Part shown: positions 8,333-31,505 of the stretch, in pieces
How the letters are laid out: each line of letters opens with the position of its first letter
Position numbering within the stretch: position 1 is the stretch's first letter
Virus record (IMG/VR): IMGVR_UViG_3300024283_000001
Location: 1,554 to 65,553 of that record
Reading direction: 5' to 3' (one strand)
Length of the DNA stretch: 64,000 nucleotides
Origin: a virus
Lineage: Duplodnaviria; Caudoviricetes
The notes under the pieces: model-generated
What the model was told of the DNA's origin: nothing
Databases searched by the model: none
Seen by the model: only the letters and a program-made list of their open reading frames with translations
Translations under genes and position numbers: made by a program

Positions 8333-9103
8333 TTAGTGTCTCGCGACCGGTCGGTCGCCTTGAGCCATGCCCCGATTGAATGCAGGTTTGCGGCCGCCAC
8401 GGCTCATGCGGTCCCACACCTTTTGGATCTGCTGCATCTTGCGGTCGAGCAAGGACGTTCGAATCCCCTGCCGGCTGTAAGACACTGGACCCCAATACCG
8501 CGGCATGTTCTGTTCGAGCACGTCCGCGATAAAATCCGTTTGCTGTTTCTCTTCGATTGCCCTGTTGGCCGCGCGAAGGTCCGCTTTCTGTTGCTGAGAA
8601 AGATTGGCGTACTGCACCATGAGCGGAATCAGCTTGTCGATCAGAAAATGCGAAAGCGGGAAATGCGTAACGACCAGTTTCCCGCGCACGAACTCCTTCG
8701 AAATCAGCGGTTGAACTACCTCATAGCGGCCGCGGTACGGATACTCGCCCGTGACATAGAAGCCTTTCGGTGCTTCGATGCGCTCGCCGGTGTCCGGGTC
8801 AACTTTCGTTTCAGTAGAAACGTAGCTGTTGAGGTAGTAGGCGCGCGGAGAGCCATACTCGAGCGGTGAATGCCAGCGCATGATGACCCAACAGGGCTGC
8901 CCGTGGCACTGGTAACGATTCCGATAGCCGAGGCGTTCGTTGCCCTTTTTGTCGCGCCAGGTATTTCCCAAACGGATGAATTGCGATTGGCCCCAAACGA
9001 TCTTGAAGTGCGGATCGCCGAACTGATTTCTGCCAAACATCCGCGTGAGCCTCGCCTGAAACTCTACCGGGCATCGCCGCGTTTCTGGGCCTCTTATGTG
9101 CAT
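8333..9103 (-). CDS. Hypothetical phage protein, 256 aa
   Basis: Long co-oriented ORF overlapping groES stop. Confidence 0.75.
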   Translation of the reverse strand: MHIRGPETRRCPVEFQARLTRMFGRNQFGDPHFKIVWGQSQFIRLGNTWRDKKGNERLGYRNRYQCHGQPCWVIMRWHSPLEYGSPRAYYLNSYVSTETKVDPDTGERIEAPKGFYVTGEYPYRGRYEVVQPLISKEFVRGKLVVTHFPLSHFLIDKLIPLMVQYANLSQQQKADLRAANRAIEEKQQTDFIADVLEQNMPRYWGPVSYSRQGIRTSLLDRKMQQIQKVWDRMSRGGRKPAFNRGMAQGDRPVARH

Positions 9104-9468
9104 CGTTTCACGCTGGCGTACACTTCCTCGTCACGGACCAGCTTCAGTTCTGCGTCACCCGTCAATTCCTCGATATCCTCGAGGTCGATCGGGAAGTTCG
9201 TGAAGATCACGAAATCCCCAGGAGAGAGGTCGGTAATTTTCTCGGATACTGCCACCACGATCCCGCGCTGTGATTTCGGCTTTCCCTTGTCCATCAAGAA
9301 GAAGTCTTCGCCAGGGGTGATCACGCCGCCCTCGGTTTTCTTCTCCTCTTCCCGGTACTGCCGAATCAAAACCCACTCGTGCCGCGGAGAGATCGCCCAC
9401 TTTTCCTTGCGTTCGCCGTTGTCTTCGAAACGCCGGCGATCCACCGTCGTTACAGATTGATTTTCCAC
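9094..9468 (-). CDS. groES: GroES/Cpn10-like co-chaperonin, 124 aa
   Basis: ISPRHEWVLI...EEEKKTEGGVITPG...KPKSQRGIVVAV...PGDFVIF matches Cpn10 pattern; immediately downstream of capsid gene. Confidence 0.8.
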   Translation of the reverse strand: MENQSVTTVDRRRFEDNGERKEKWAISPRHEWVLIRQYREEEKKTEGGVITPGEDFFLMDKGKPKSQRGIVVAVSEKITDLSPGDFVIFTNFPIDLEDIEELTGDAELKLVRDEEVYASVKRCT

Positions 9469-9537: not shown

Positions 9538-10878
9538 TTAGCTCGTCACGGAAGGCACGGCCGCGTTCGAAATGAACACGCCAGCCTTCATGTTCGAGTT
9601 GAAGAGGTTCAAAAACGCGTTGTAGAAGAAAATCGAAGAGGTCAGGTAGCTGCCCTGGCCGACGTAGTCCGGGATCGGCATCGTGGTGACACCGTCTCCG
9701 AAATCGTACAGCGAAGGCTCGACCGTCTCGATGATCCCCCACGTCTCCGGGCAAATTGCATCCAGGCGTCCCGCCTTCGCGGTGTAGCTCACGTTCAGTG
9801 GGCGTCCACCGTAGGTCGGGGCCATGTGCTTTTTCACCATGTCCAGCGCTTTGTCGCCAGGCGGCACGTAGTTCTGCGTGAGGACGTTCGTGTAAAGCTG
9901 CGTCACGGCCAGTTCCTGGTCGGGTCCGCAAATCCACTCGAAGTCCGCGACAGCTTCGTTGTCCGCACCGAGGCCGCGGCCGATCAGAATCTCGGCCTTG
10001 TAAGCATCGGTCATGTTGATCGCCGCCGTGGCTTTGTTGATGTTCGGCGTCGAGAGTTGGCCCGGATAGGTGGACCGGGAAAGGTTCAGGATGGTGCCGG
10101 TATTCGAAGACACCTGGTAGGTGTAAACGCCGGCGAGCCCGGAGTTCAGTGCGCCGGTGCTGCCCTGAATCATGACGAAATCGCCGGTGGAAGTGCTCGT
10201 CGGCAGAGCCGTCGAGAAATACACCGTGTCGTTCGCGCCATCGACGTAGGACACCGTCGCGGTGGAAGGCGTGATGCGAGCCGAACCACCCTCGGTTGGG
10301 AAGAACTGAACAACTTGCTGTTCCTGGAACTGGTTTGCCTGGCCACCGAGGCCCACGATCGAGGACGGGTTGGCGCCGCCGAGCGTGTTGTTATTGATTG
10401 TCGCGGTGGAAGGGATCTGGAGGATGGCGCCGGAACCGTCACTCAGGAACTGAGCATCCAGCCCCTGCATGAATTGGTTGAAAGAATTCTTCAACTCTTC
10501 GGCACGCAGACTGATCAAGCTGCGCTTCGGGCCTTGCGTTGCAATCCGGGCGAGATACGTGATCTCGCATCCGGCAAACAAACCGATCGGCGAAAGATCT
10601 CCCGCAACCCACAAGGAGCCAGTCCCGCGTCCCAGGGCGTCACCGTTGCCGGTCGCCTGGAAAATGGCCGAACCAGACTGCATTCGGACAGGAATACGGA
10701 ACGACGGACGCGACACGCCACCAGCTTGTGTGGTGACGGAGGTCGGATACGTCTTGCTCTTTTTCTTAATGAAGTTGTAGACCGTGTGGCCTTTGTAGAC
10801 CAGGTCCGGGATTCCCTTCGCAAAATTCTCTAGCTCAACGGCCTCAACAGCCGCTTCTGCCAGTGGATTCGCTGCCAT
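9538..10878 (-). CDS. Major capsid protein, 446 aa
   Basis: Follows portal and scaffold; own promoter and downstream hairpin; size and composition typical of HK97-fold capsids. Confidence 0.8.
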   Translation of the reverse strand: MAANPLAEAAVEAVELENFAKGIPDLVYKGHTVYNFIKKKSKTYPTSVTTQAGGVSRPSFRIPVRMQSGSAIFQATGNGDALGRGTGSLWVAGDLSPIGLFAGCEITYLARIATQGPKRSLISLRAEELKNSFNQFMQGLDAQFLSDGSGAILQIPSTATINNNTLGGANPSSIVGLGGQANQFQEQQVVQFFPTEGGSARITPSTATVSYVDGANDTVYFSTALPTSTSTGDFVMIQGSTGALNSGLAGVYTYQVSSNTGTILNLSRSTYPGQLSTPNINKATAAINMTDAYKAEILIGRGLGADNEAVADFEWICGPDQELAVTQLYTNVLTQNYVPPGDKALDMVKKHMAPTYGGRPLNVSYTAKAGRLDAICPETWGIIETVEPSLYDFGDGVTTMPIPDYVGQGSYLTSSIFFYNAFLNLFNSNMKAGVFISNAAVPSVTS

Positions 10879-11275: not shown

Positions 11276-11734
11276 TTAGCCAGCGGTCTGCACGAAGTCG
11301 ATTGCCGTCAGCGGAGGAGGAGCCGGCTCGGTCACTGTGATCGAGTGGCTGTTGCTGACAGTTCCGACCGCGGGGTCAGAAGACTGTGCACTGATAGAAA
11401 GCGTGAAACCCGTAACGGTGCTGCCGACAGGAGCAGTTACATCGCAAGAAAGTCCATCGGCGCTCGGCGAAAGAACGATGCTCGAGTCGTTCGCGGACCA
11501 CTGCGGTACTGTTCCGGGCGCCTGGGCGCCGTTCGGGGGAGTGAGTTGCGCGGTGAAAGTTCCTGCCGCGCCACGAACGATTGAGAAATCCATACAGCCT
11601 CCAGCTTGAATGAAATCGATCTTTTTGAGAGCAATCCACCGAAGAAGACGCTTCACGTCGTCATGAACGCATTCTAGTTCGCGCTCAATTCGCTTCAGCC
11701 GTTCTTTTTCTTCGTGGTCGAAATGACAGAACAC
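11276..11734 (-). CDS. Ig-like beta protein, possible capsid decoration; second start likely at 11593 (MDFSIV)
   Basis: Beta-rich C-terminal 105 aa; GGAGG SD before ATG at 11593. Confidence 0.6.
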   Translation of the reverse strand: MFCHFDHEEKERLKRIERELECVHDDVKRLLRWIALKKIDFIQAGGCMDFSIVRGAAGTFTAQLTPPNGAQAPGTVPQWSANDSSIVLSPSADGLSCDVTAPVGSTVTGFTLSISAQSSDPAVGTVSNSHSITVTEPAPPPLTAIDFVQTAG

Positions 11735-11894: not shown

Positions 11895-13364
11895 CTACCT
11901 TTCCACCTTTGCCCAGTCAAACTTAATCCGCTTGCCGTTCTTCAGGATCGCCTCGCCCGTTCCGCGGCCGATGTGATACATGGCCTCGGTCGTTTTGGTC
12001 CAGTCGATCTCATCAGGTCTCGGCAGCTTTGATACCAGGGTGACGCCAGCGGCTCCTTTACCTGCCCCTGCCGCCGCCCCAGTCCCGTTTGCCGCACCGT
12101 TGGCCCCCGCGGCCGCACCGTTGGCCTTACCTGCGCCGGCAGCCACCTTTGTGCCACCCCGGGTGTAATTGGGATACATAGCGTCCCGCAAGGCCCGGAA
12201 GTGCTGCGGCAAGAGTTCGGCGAATTTGGCGCTCACAAACCGTGCGGTGCGGCCAGCATCGCCTTTCGCCTTCAGGGCGTTGCCGGCACGTTGGAAGGCT
12301 TTGTCATCGCGCATCGTTTTCCAGATCCGCGAGTTTAGGGCGTTGATGAATTCACGTCGGCCTTCCGGCTTCAACTTGAGATCTTTGAAGAAAGGCTCGG
12401 CCAGGCGCGCGGTCGCCGTGTTGTTCAGTTTATTTACGTCGGCCGAAATCTGACCTTCGTAGATTTTCTGTTTCTCGGTCGCCACTTCCGCGCGGTCCCG
12501 GTTGAGTGCTTCGCGCTCTGGATCCACGGTCTTTCGCGTCGAGGCCTGTTTCTCTGCGAGTGACTTCGCATTGTTCAGCCACTTCCGAATGTCCTGGGTG
12601 AGATCCCAGGCTTCCTGGCCCTTGCCTTCTTTTATCAGCGCATCCAGCTTGTCCAGCGAAGAATACATGCCGGCTTTCTCGAGCCGCGGCACCATCGCCG
12701 GCAGCAGGACGTTGTCGAGCATCGCCGGCGACTTCTCCATGATTAGCGCCAGGCCGTTGGTGATGGAAGTGGCGAAGGCTTCGGGATTGGAAGTGTGGAG
12801 CTCCTGGAGCAAGGCAGGGTCGCCGTTTGCGAACTGTGTGGTCTCGCGACGGTAATCCTCGACCTCATTCTGGATTTCGGTGAGTCCTTCTTCACCACCG
12901 ACCGCTTCAAGCGTCGCAGTCATCTGCCGCACTCTGTTTACGGCATCGCTGAGATTTGTTGCGCCGACTTCCTTGACGATCGCCTGGCCACGGCCGTGGT
13001 CGGCAAAGAGCCGCTTTGCAGCTTCGGGGTTTACTTTCTTAAATGCGGCCAGCGCCTCGCGCGTTTTCGCGTCGATCTTTCGGCCATCCGCAGTATCAAA
13101 CTCGTCGGCTTCTGGTTCGGGCTCGCCTTCACCCGCACCGGCGCCTTCGTCGCCAATCTCCCCTGCACCTTCACCTTCGCCCTCGCCCTCGCCGGCGCCG
13201 GCAGCATCCCCGCCTTCGCCAGCACCCCCATCTTCTCCAGGCGCTCCAGCTCCTTCACCAGCGCCCTCACCTGCTCCAGCGCCCGGGTCATTTCCTGCTC
13301 CAGCATCGCCACCAGGTGTGCCATCTGCGACCGCCGTTCCTACTCCTGCCAATACGTCGTCCAT
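11895..13364 (-). CDS. Putative scaffolding protein, 489 aa
   Basis: Between portal and capsid; acidic GEGAG-repeat N-terminus, helical core, short basic C-terminal motif. Confidence 0.65.
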   Translation of the reverse strand: MDDVLAGVGTAVADGTPGGDAGAGNDPGAGAGEGAGEGAGAPGEDGGAGEGGDAAGAGEGEGEGEGAGEIGDEGAGAGEGEPEPEADEFDTADGRKIDAKTREALAAFKKVNPEAAKRLFADHGRGQAIVKEVGATNLSDAVNRVRQMTATLEAVGGEEGLTEIQNEVEDYRRETTQFANGDPALLQELHTSNPEAFATSITNGLALIMEKSPAMLDNVLLPAMVPRLEKAGMYSSLDKLDALIKEGKGQEAWDLTQDIRKWLNNAKSLAEKQASTRKTVDPEREALNRDRAEVATEKQKIYEGQISADVNKLNNTATARLAEPFFKDLKLKPEGRREFINALNSRIWKTMRDDKAFQRAGNALKAKGDAGRTARFVSAKFAELLPQHFRALRDAMYPNYTRGGTKVAAGAGKANGAAAGANGAANGTGAAAGAGKGAAGVTLVSKLPRPDEIDWTKTTEAMYHIGRGTGEAILKNGKRIKFDWAKVER

Positions 13365-18141: not shown

Positions 18142-18340
18142 TCGTTAACTCCTTCGGCTCACGAACGATCGTGAAATCCGCGGGGAGGTCTTTGTCGGTC
18201 GGCTTCACCCAGGTGTTGTGCTCCAGGCTCCACTCGAGGGCGTCGGCCACAATCGAGCAATCCATTTTGTCGGCGAGAGCGATCGCTTCGGCTACGACTT
18301 GCCGGTCGGGTCCGATCCGGGTTGGTTTCTGCTGGGCCAT
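18128..18340 (-). CDS. Hypothetical protein, 70 aa (start MAQQKP)
   Basis: TGATG overlap with terminase stop. Confidence 0.55.
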   Translation of the reverse strand: MAQQKPTRIGPDRQVVAEAIALADKMDCSIVADALEWSLEHNTWVKPTDKDLPADFTIVREPKELTNGKT

Positions 18341-19944
18341 CAGTGCTTCACTCGATGCATCCACGAGGGCTGAATCACCTGCTTGGGGCCTCGGCGCCCG
18401 GCAGCCTGTTCGATGTTCCACTCTTTGTACGCGACAACCGAGCGGGTGAAATCATCTTTGATGCCGGCCAGTTTCTCGCGGAGCAGAACTTCCTTCGGCT
18501 TGTCGGTCGCGTCCAGTAGAACGCCGGCGACAGCATAGCGCATCGAGTCTCCGCAGTCATCGGTTAAACTCACGCCTTTCGGCTTTACCACGTCTTCCAA
18601 GGAGCAGGTTATCCCGTCGCCGCGGACAAGCAGCGGGATCGACTCGGCCAGGTTCTGGCACGTGCCCTCGAGCAGGAACCAGTCGTCCATCTCAAGCATC
18701 GAGTACATCTTGGTCCAGCCGGCAACGCGGTCTGTGTTCGATCGCGTGGGCCTGGGCAAGCCGGCCGCGGCCAGAATATCGCCGACCATATCGGAAACGC
18801 TGATTACGTTCCCGCTCTTGTCCTTCGTCGTCTTGTTGAAACGCTCCCAGGAGAAATGAATCGAATCGATGTCCCAGGCGTAGCCGGTCTCTTCGCGCGT
18901 CTCCGGGTCGTAAGTTCGCGGAATCGACAGAATCAACGCCTCGGTCTGTTCTTCCGGGGTCTTCTGCTCGAGGATGAGCTCCTGTAGCGTCACGTTTACC
19001 CACCGCGGTTTCTCGCCTTCAAACCGTGGCTTCAGGATCGCCTTTGTCCAGAAGCTGATCACTGCGAAGTGGCCGAAGCCATAGTCCCATCCAACCCACA
19101 CGGGCTGCCAGGATTCAAACTTGAACGCCGACGCCGGCAAGACGTGGCGCCGTTCCTCGAAGTTGCCGAAATACTGGCCGCTGACCGTCTCGATATTTCC
19201 CCACCTGATTTTGTCGCGTAGAGGAGACTTCTCGAGCGAGGAAATGTACGCCTCATCGTTCTTAAGGATTTCGTTCTGATCGACGGTCGAATGAATGAAC
19301 TGGTAGTCGTTCGGGTTGTACTTCTCCGGGTCCATCCCGTGAATCGGTTTCTTGTCGATCCACAGCTTCTTGATCCAGCCCCAACCGATACCCATCGGAT
19401 TGGTGACGCCAGCCATGCACGGTCGCGCGCCAGGTATCGTGCAGCGGTTGCGTCCTTCCATCGCGTCATAAATCAAATAGGGGAACTCGCCCAACTCTTC
19501 GAAGCCGATGAACACGAACTCCGTCGACAGGTACTTGCCCACGTCTTCGATGCGTTCGCACGCACCGAAGTAGAGTTTGCTTTGCCGGCGTGTCACCGGG
19601 TCCGGTGGAAAATAGACGATGTGATCGCTCTTGTTAAAGGTGCCGCGAAGTTGGCTGCCACCCTCGTAAACATACTTCGGAATGTCCGCTTCGAACTTGT
19701 CGATTACTGTGCGCTTCAGATCGGGCATCGTCTTGCGAAGGATGATCGAGTTCGAGCCCGGGTACTCCATGCAGTGGAGCACGGCCTCCATCAAGAGTGG
19801 CCGCGACTTGCCGGATCCAAAGCCGCCGACGTGAAGGCGGTGCTTCGCCGGCATCGAGTGAAAGAGTCTTTGGTGTTCCCAGGGCTGATAAAAATCGGAG
19901 ATTCGAATCGGTCTACCGGGAATGTATTGAGCGGCTGTGGCCAC
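18340..19944 (-). CDS. terL: Terminase large subunit, 534 aa
   Basis: Walker A GGFGSGKS, Walker B FIGFEE, coupling motif GVTNP, nuclease motifs VGWDYG and DDCGDSMRY. Confidence 0.92.
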   Translation of the reverse strand: MATAAQYIPGRPIRISDFYQPWEHQRLFHSMPAKHRLHVGGFGSGKSRPLLMEAVLHCMEYPGSNSIILRKTMPDLKRTVIDKFEADIPKYVYEGGSQLRGTFNKSDHIVYFPPDPVTRRQSKLYFGACERIEDVGKYLSTEFVFIGFEELGEFPYLIYDAMEGRNRCTIPGARPCMAGVTNPMGIGWGWIKKLWIDKKPIHGMDPEKYNPNDYQFIHSTVDQNEILKNDEAYISSLEKSPLRDKIRWGNIETVSGQYFGNFEERRHVLPASAFKFESWQPVWVGWDYGFGHFAVISFWTKAILKPRFEGEKPRWVNVTLQELILEQKTPEEQTEALILSIPRTYDPETREETGYAWDIDSIHFSWERFNKTTKDKSGNVISVSDMVGDILAAAGLPRPTRSNTDRVAGWTKMYSMLEMDDWFLLEGTCQNLAESIPLLVRGDGITCSLEDVVKPKGVSLTDDCGDSMRYAVAGVLLDATDKPKEVLLREKLAGIKDDFTRSVVAYKEWNIEQAAGRRGPKQVIQPSWMHRVKH

Positions 19945-30819: not shown

Positions 30820-31023
30820 ATGTACCGCAGGAAATTGCTGTCCGAGAACGACCTGGTGGACCGCGCCGAGGCCCGGAAGTGGCGCAACAGCTATTGGACG
30901 GACGCCTATCGAGCGAAGCGTCGAATCGAAGGCATCTGGATCTCCGTATTCCTTTTGCTCTTCGCTCTTTTCGGTGGCGTGCTCATCGGCGTTTTGATGA
31001 TCGCCAAGTACGGGCGCCCATGA
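30820..31023 (+). CDS. Small membrane protein, 67 aa
   Basis: GAGGAGG SD; C-terminal TM segment. Confidence 0.55.
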   Translation: MYRRKLLSENDLVDRAEARKWRNSYWTDAYRAKRRIEGIWISVFLLLFALFGGVLIGVLMIAKYGRP

Positions 31024-31505
31024 GAAAAAATCCACTAGCCGAAGCAGCCGTTGAGGCTATCGAGCTAAGGAAGTTCGACGAAGACCGCACTTTCGATTTG
31101 CCGGATTTGCCGGTGAAGAAAAAGAAGAAAAACAAGTCGAAGCCAGTCCAGCGATCGCTTGGGCTGCTGCGGGATAACGGTTGGACGGTCACGATCGTTG
31201 AAAAGTACATGAAACACCCCGGCATGCCGTTCGGGAAACGCATTGACGTTTTCGGATTTGGAGACCTGCTTGCCATCCGGCGCCGGATGAAGGGTCGTGA
31301 CGGAAAAACGATTCACCCGGCTGCGATCGCTCTCGTCCAGTGCTGCGCGGACGGGGATTTCGCAAAACACAAAGACAAAATCCTGGCGATTCCAGAGTTC
31401 TACGAATGGAAGGCTTGCGGGGGAACGGTGTTCCTGCAGGGCTGGTCGCTCAAAGGCCCCCGGGGCCAAAAGAAAGACTGGACTATGCGCGAGGAGGAAT
31501 TGTAG
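31020..31505 (+). CDS. PD-(D/E)XK nuclease (resolvase/VRR-NUC-like) with capsid-like N-terminal peptide, 161 aa
   Basis: GWTVTIVEK...DVFGFGDLLAI...LVQC...GW; ATGA overlap with upstream gene. Confidence 0.65.
   Translation: MRKNPLAEAAVEAIELRKFDEDRTFDLPDLPVKKKKKNKSKPVQRSLGLLRDNGWTVTIVEKYMKHPGMPFGKRIDVFGFGDLLAIRRRMKGRDGKTIHPAAIALVQCCADGDFAKHKDKILAIPEFYEWKACGGTVFLQGWSLKGPRGQKKDWTMREEEL

Follow-up and report, generated by a model that had tools for sequence, protein, structure and literature searches.

Mosaic gene fusions formed by illegitimate or homeologous recombination have been described in phages, and recombinases of the single-strand-annealing type promote recombination of sequences that have diverged (PMC2327257). 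In bacteriophage T4, proteins, among them a foreign nuclease, enter the scaffold core of the prohead by means of the capsid targeting sequence (CTS) of the internal proteins IPI-III (PMC3012670). The T4 peptide is common to several internal proteins, is cleaved by the prohead protease and is not a copy of the capsid protein N-terminus. In procapsids of phages 80alpha and SPP1, the C-terminus of the scaffolding protein binds to the N-terminal helix of the capsid protein (PMC5644958, PMC6813328).

Here we describe a tailed virus locus where the N-terminal helix of the major capsid protein recurs, in frame, at the N-terminus of a resolvase-like nuclease. The sequence analysed (the window) comprises 64,000 nt, corresponding to positions 1,554 to 65,553 of the IMG/VR record IMGVR_UViG_3300024283_000001. 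The full record is 65,553 bp in size, has direct terminal repeats and is rated complete. The copy in the nuclease gene is most likely a one-off recombination scar, and the fusion adds a further case to the known process of mosaic fusion by illegitimate recombination. By analogy with the assembly systems mentioned above, a role of the nuclease peptide as a capsid-targeting tag is possible.

The locus resembles the described mosaic fusions (PMC2327257) in having a lineage-specific in-frame insertion, microhomology at the junctions and a RecT-type annealing protein. It differs from them in that the donor would be another gene of the same phage type, the transferred piece is only about 40-105 nt long, and an interaction helix of a structural protein has been placed on an enzyme. 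With the T4 CTS (PMC3012670) it has in common a short N-terminal peptide preceding an otherwise unrelated protein. Unlike in T4, however, the peptide is found on one non-capsid protein only and not on several packaged internal proteins, and no prohead protease was identified among the subset of ORFs scanned. The likeness to 80alpha and SPP1 is twofold: the piece that was copied corresponds to the N-terminal helix of a predicted HK97-fold capsid protein, and the capsid gene follows closely downstream of a scaffold-like gene of its own, a 152-aa ORF lying in between. The nuclease copy differs, however, in lacking the capsid-invariant E17 as well as the conserved residues 20-23, and the scaffold contacts in this phage are proposed by analogy. 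The features of the locus are collected in Table 1.

Table 1. Positions (within the window) of the genes and segments discussed in the text
Feature	Position	Strand	Basis or remark
Small membrane-protein gene, TGA overlapping the nuclease ATG (ATGA)	30820..31023	+	C-terminal half and overlap conserved in L001
Nuclease gene P0003 with N-terminal extension, 161 aa	31020..31505	+	ORF, translation, AF2 model, 46 homologs
Capsid-like core peptide N4-L16 of the nuclease	31029..31067	+	12/13 aa and 32/39 nt identical to capsid; inside predicted helix 5-20
Insertion tail R17-P31, acidic, Pro-rich	31068..31112	+	Sequence; pLDDT ~65, predicted disordered
In-frame GTG (V32) followed by Lys run; possible alternative or ancestral start	31113..31130	+	Aligned to L036 ATG
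PD-(D/E)xK nuclease core, residues 42-161	31143..31502	+	Alignment A1, VIA-align, Foldseek
Major capsid protein gene P0004, 446 aa	9538..10878	-	Homologs, Foldseek, gene order
Capsid N-arm core N4-L16, presumed donor type	10831..10869	-	Conserved in >100 capsid homologs
Putative scaffolding protein, 489 aa	11895..13364	-	Presumed role; between portal-sized ORF and capsid gene

Major capsid protein and head genes

The sequence-only reading had named P0004 as the major capsid protein, and both structural matches and genomic position agree with this. Although the AF2 model is poor (mean pLDDT 58), it has 23 Foldseek matches at E <= 0.001, each of them either a phage capsid protein or a shell protein of an encapsulin, the best one being SU10 (7z46, E 8e-6) and others including A-1(L) (7f38) and Mycofy1. 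Judged from these model-based matches, P0004 is an HK97-fold major capsid protein. Matches were found neither in PHROG nor by PDB sequence search, and tblastn of the capsid protein against phage GenBank sequences gave zero matches. There are 379 homologs at E <= 0.001; among the 120 matches listed the identity ranges from 97% to 73%, and they reside mostly on contigs of 65-68 kb.

The head module consists, in this order, of TerL (18340-19944), an 873-aa portal-sized ORF, the 489-aa scaffold-like gene, the 152-aa ORF, the capsid gene and a GroES-like gene, and the order is kept in the relatives. The N-terminal peptide ranks among the most conserved segments of the capsid family, with E8, V11, E15 and E17 invariant in the capsid alignment (A4). 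The 489-aa scaffold-like protein, which has no family match, is presumably the natural partner of this N-arm.

Nuclease

The AF2 model of P0003 has a mean pLDDT of 87.8, and residues 37-161 resemble the PD-(D/E)xK fold as found in tRNA-splicing endonuclease, Hjc and VRR-NUC/FAN1 (VIA-align, Z 7.4-6.0). Nearly all of the 30 best VIA-align rows are nucleases of this fold, with moderate Z values of 7.4-4.9 (under 8), and the Hjc, VRR-NUC and tRNA-splicing-endonuclease structures superimpose with an rmsd of 2.6-5 A over 82-100 residues (for 1gef, Z 7.1 and rmsd 2.9 A over 87 residues). The best Foldseek match is Hjc 2wiw, with a weak E value of 0.02. The restriction-endonuclease-like alpha-beta-beta-beta-alpha-beta core is present in P0003, and E61, D76, D82, Q107 and K120 are invariant across the 47 sequences of the nuclease alignment (A1). 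P0003 shares the fold of residues 37-161, the conserved acidic residues E61 and D82 and the basic N-terminal tail with the branch comprising archaeal Hjc, VRR-NUC and tRNA-splicing endonucleases, but differs from it in having no Pfam match and in a non-canonical third catalytic motif, where Q107-C-C replaces E-x-K. The invariant K120, located on the next helix, could stand in for the absent motif lysine.

At the sequence level the protein is rather isolated. Neither P0003 nor P0004 matched any Pfam family, PDB profile searches gave nothing significant for the nuclease or the capsid family, and a single weak match to P0003 was obtained in PHROGs. Using tblastn with the nuclease core against phage GenBank sequences, four weak matches were found in Xanthomonas and Stenotrophomonas phages, each of which begins at residue 42 or later. 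The gene belongs to a block on the + strand together with a DUF932-like gene and RecT, i.e., to a recombination module. "Resolvase-like nuclease", the name proposed from the DNA alone, is a reasonable one for this predicted activity, being in line with the fold matches and with the neighbourhood of RecT.

In about one third of the homologs, a two-Cys-pair, zinc-ribbon-like insert of 20-30 residues is located between core strands 2 and 3. Its carriers in A1 are P0006-P0010, P0024, P0030, P0036, P0038 and P0042, and P0003 is without it.

Shared peptide

As the sequence-only reading had reported, the translated N-termini of P0003 and P0004 are identical at 14 of 19 residues, in register from Met1. 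The likeness is concentrated in the core N4-L16, where the only replacement from capsid to nuclease is V14 to I. Of the seven nucleotide differences in the core, five are silent and fall in codons with an unchanged residue, while the remaining two are both in codon 14 (GTT/ATC), one causing the V/I replacement and the other being silent. The tally is thus six synonymous changes and one nonsynonymous change over approximately 10.8 synonymous and 28.2 nonsynonymous sites (pS ~0.55, pN ~0.035). According to a rough estimate, two N-termini in a window of about 80 genes would agree in register at 12 of 13 residues by chance with a probability well below 1e-8. The core match is therefore regarded as homology and not coincidence, and the earlier claim of a homologous shared peptide is upheld.

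Beyond residue 16 the similarity falls off sharply. Position 17 is E in all 36 capsid homologs compared and R in the nuclease, and thereafter the two proteins have no more in common than F19, the triplet PDL and a run of Lys residues. The PDL triplet had been pointed out earlier as an additional shared feature; it does occur in both proteins, but it is weak as a sign of likeness, since local alignment past the core gave shuffle p values of about 0.007 for protein, a value leaning partly on the native Lys run, and 0.11 for DNA. A shared nucleotide element, such as a leader or a ribosome-binding site, was also considered and could be ruled out, the upstream regions being unrelated and the core DNA just 82% identical.

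A six-frame scan of the window allowing up to five mismatches (<=5) revealed the peptide in the capsid and nuclease genes only, with no third copy, and a search of the full virus record showed no extra copies either.

Insertion in the nuclease gene

The closest relative at the nuclease locus, L001, has a nuclease with 78% protein identity and flanks with 78-86% DNA identity. The C-terminal half of the gene upstream of the nuclease gene is conserved in L001 (86% nucleotide identity, same end residues), and so is the ATGA overlap. The start at ATG 31020, on which the sequence-only reading depended, is thereby supported as a conserved and translationally coupled one. The L001 nuclease lacks the insertion and starts directly with M-K-N-K-S-K-P. 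Since the L001 product begins at the Lys-rich segment, the window has 35 additional codons, in frame and placed right after the first two codons in the A-rich 5' end of the gene. The remaining homologs start at the Lys-rich segment or a few residues ahead of it, some of them having short unrelated leaders rich in acidic residues, Pro and Lys. In the AF2 model the extension forms a helix at residues 5-20 (pLDDT 70-80), and a low-confidence linker (residues 21-41) precedes the core.

In another nuclease locus, L036, whose product starts M-K-K-K-K-N-K-S-K-P, the ATG occupies the same alignment columns as the in-frame GTG at 31113, so a version of the nuclease gene's start region appears to lie on either side of the insertion. 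The hexamer AATCCA is common to the native 5' end of the nuclease gene, as judged from L001, and to capsid codons 4-5, and at the right junction an A-rich Lys-coding run occurs in both genes. Directly before the GTG there is a perfect 9-nt tandem duplication (31095-31103 and 31104-31112), each unit encoding D-L-P. This three-codon duplication is the only visible indel of the extension and keeps the frame; it is probably a product of recent in-frame slippage inside the extension. In the tail R17-P31 the DNA likeness to the capsid gene is not significant, and a scan for promoters and terminators around the insertion gave nothing exceeding background.

Distribution of the fusion

The fusion is a singleton confined to one phage lineage. 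The capsid-like peptide was found in none of the 46 protein homologs of the nuclease and at none of 75 IMG/VR nuclease loci examined with 1.5-kb flanks, nor was it found in L001. In ten related phage genomes, nine of which are at least 90% complete, the peptide occurs once each, in the capsid gene. In a collection of 5.8 billion proteins, a search with residues 1-40 among those 88-282 aa in length returned the query alone. Back-translated peptide patterns matched 17 IMG/VR and three metagenome contigs, all in capsid genes, and the pattern specific to the nuclease junction had no matches in the same kind of DNA scan. A search of residues 1-37 against 1.84 billion representatives yielded one unrelated 2470-aa repeat protein, with a score summed over 11 weak repeats; this search recovered no capsids either and is hence uninformative. 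Among sequencing runs, the stretch is contained in just one soil metagenome run, probably from the source sample, and no RNA run is listed as containing it. In this run, the site is represented by a single contig at a depth of 42, with no variant or insertion-free allele, which is silent on expression and polymorphism.

The sequence-only reading had raised the possibility that nuclease N-termini of related phages co-vary with their own capsid N-termini. As none of the homologs and loci examined has a capsid-like N-terminus, there is nothing to co-vary, and the peptide is not a conserved accessory domain of the nuclease family.

Origin of the copied peptide

We consider a lineage-specific mosaic fusion the best explanation and assign it a probability of about 0.5. 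According to this reading the fusion arose by microhomology-mediated recombination, is translated from the coupled ATG and is tolerated without a dedicated role. A short 5' piece of the capsid gene encoding the N-arm helix would have entered the Hjc-like nuclease gene, in frame and within the A-rich codons at its start, in a single phage lineage. The donor may have been the phage's own capsid gene or the allele of a related phage. The AATCCA hexamer, the Lys run, the doubled start region and the duplication suggest that illegitimate recombination mediated by microhomology, or a template switch, took place in a stretch rich in A and prone to slippage. The native coupled start being kept, the nuclease most likely carries the 35-residue N-terminal extension, which would consist of an acidic amphipathic helix (residues 5-20) and a flexible acidic and Pro-rich linker in front of the native Lys-rich tail and an unchanged catalytic core. 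The position on a flexible N-terminal tail would explain why the fusion is tolerated. In addition to the restriction to one lineage, the RecT encoded by the phage counts in favour of a mosaic origin.

Several observations count against it. No recent donor was found among approximately 46 capsid alleles, the extension has remained in frame, and the copied helix is not an arbitrary peptide, given that it is the scaffold-binding element in 80alpha and SPP1 (PMC5644958, PMC6813328). The donor comparison covered capsid 5' ends from IMG/VR, JGI, ENA and NCBI contigs but not the alleles of V14 type in the large metagenome collection. Within this set the best match to the nuclease copy is 32/39, and the phage's own capsid gene ties for best.

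The pattern of synonymous differences had been taken by the sequence-only reading as a sign of selection on the peptide rather than of a recent DNA copy. The excess itself, six synonymous changes against one conservative replacement, is real, but the inference of selection does not follow from it. Compared with the window capsid, the alleles of related phages show differences at 3-7 of the 39 core positions, all of them synonymous, and this holds even for a capsid with 97% protein and 93% DNA identity. The capsid side of the peptide is under strong purifying selection. Since the capsid alleles already differ synonymously at the same sites, copying of an unsampled allele would explain the pattern without any selection on the nuclease. 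A pairwise excess cannot show on which branch the changes took place, and as an argument for selection on the nuclease peptide it is not decisive. If, on the other hand, the donor belonged to the phage's own capsid lineage, the copy would be old, and a helix held at 12/13 while the enzyme core drifted to 78% identity to L001 would mean real constraint, i.e., purifying selection on the nuclease helix at least as strict as that on the core. A short patch of recombination accounts slightly better than gradual decay for the abrupt loss of similarity past residue 16, which includes the capsid-invariant E17.

As in the described mosaic phages (PMC2327257), modules differ here in their divergence: the capsid gene has 93% nucleotide identity to L133 and the nuclease region 78-86% identity to L001. 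L133 and L001, which were obtained from one metagenome sample, presumably come from one phage, and the modules appear to have been reshuffled within the related phage group. If the copy is a scar, it is a clean example of phages shuffling very short coding pieces between unrelated genes, and one that includes the insertion-free sister state and visible microhomology at the junctions.

Alternative interpretations

The strongest competitor of the mosaic scar, though a tentative one, is functional mimicry of the capsid N-arm: the peptide would bind the partners of that arm in the procapsid, the most plausible one being the putative 489-aa scaffolding protein with its C-terminal domain. In this way the nuclease could reach procapsids during their assembly, or even get inside them, to remove branches at packaging or to be delivered along with the DNA; a different possibility is that the enzyme is kept inactive until late infection. 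Holding a resolvase at or in procapsids would be biologically sensible. Contacts with scaffold, portal or a chaperone, and a decoy role, had been suggested as hypotheses by the sequence-only reading. T4 endonuclease VII reportedly associates with the portal protein gp20, an observation attributed to Golz and Kemper in 1999 and counted here in favour of mimicry. The core has kept 12 of its 13 residues, the one V/I replacement being accompanied by otherwise synonymous DNA changes, and no closer donor allele is at hand; in contrast to this conserved core, the tail is unrecognisable. A predicted helix followed by a flexible linker of about 20 residues before the core is a tag-like layout, and the peptide is taken from one of the most conserved parts of the capsid family. 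The scaffold is bound by the capsid N-terminal helix in 80alpha and SPP1 (PMC5644958, PMC6813328), and T4 heads are loaded by means of N-terminal targeting peptides, with a nuclease among the cargo (PMC3012670).

Set against mimicry is first of all the absence of the peptide from every homolog and related genome examined; being a singleton, any function would be new and dispensable for the nuclease family. Furthermore, the capsid-invariant E17 and I23 and the near-invariant A20 and K21 are not preserved in the nuclease, the scaffold assignment of the 489-aa protein is itself presumptive, and the peptide is found in no other protein of the phage, unlike the T4 targeting sequence with its several internal proteins. 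A complex prediction with the C-terminal 110 residues of the scaffold-like protein (A5) and nuclease residues 1-45 had a score of 0.00, which bears neither way.

Somewhat less probable still is the more specific proposal that the scaffold-binding N-arm helix of the capsid has become a portable tag docking the resolvase-like nuclease on the procapsid scaffold. If this were true, the enzyme would be concentrated at the packaging site, encapsidated, or freed only when the scaffold leaves, and the peptide would represent a natural cargo-loading signal in a tailed phage, born by copying an assembly interface of the shell protein and caught at birth in a single lineage. If the helix is under selection, it would show how a capsid-targeting signal can arise from a copy of the capsid's own scaffold-binding element, and it would offer a simple, testable tag for loading proteins into capsids of an uncultured soil phage group. 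In choosing between scar and selected helix, the singleton status argues for caution.

It is unlikely that the active nuclease starts at GTG 31113 and that positions 31020-31112 are an untranslated or incidentally translated scar. Such a start would give a native-like N-terminus, M-K-K-K-K-K-N-K-S-K-P, the following residues of which match the usual N-terminus of the family, and it would coincide exactly with the L036 start; a 31-codon open frame is not significant by itself either (estimated chance ~0.2). Nevertheless, ATG 31020 retains the ATGA overlap used by the relatives, the GTG is not preceded by a Shine-Dalgarno-like sequence, and translational coupling to the upstream gene would make ribosomes initiate at 31020 and continue in frame. 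Chance or convergence of two unrelated acidic amphipathic helices is highly improbable, for although Ala/Glu-rich helices are common and the 37-residue query did match one unrelated repetitive protein in the 1.84-billion-representative library, identity reaches 12/13 residues and 32/39 nucleotides with the register kept from Met1, and the peptide, which none of the nuclease homologs has, is part of a clear insertion.

Other features of the head module

Several further observations concern the genes around the capsid gene. The C-terminus of the scaffold-like protein (11898-12030, minus strand) forms a small domain with the pattern I-D-W-x-K-T ... L-K-N-G-K ... W-x-W behind a Gly/Ala-rich linker. 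This domain (alignment A5), which has no family assignment, is conserved in relatives as distant as those with 53% capsid identity. The ORF of 152 aa that separates the scaffold gene from the capsid gene (11276-11734, minus strand) is absent in many relatives, and in those the scaffold ORF stops approximately 410-430 nt ahead of the capsid start. Directly downstream of the capsid gene, a GroES/Cpn10-like gene (9094-9468, minus strand) is found in the same place in the relatives. In two related phages (L025:1501-3503 and L024:1501-3470), an insert of approximately 660 nt splits the capsid gene behind the conserved motif G-L-F-A-G. The insert encodes a 185-aa ORF with a LAGLIDADG-like motif and therefore looks like a group I intron or a homing-endonuclease insertion.
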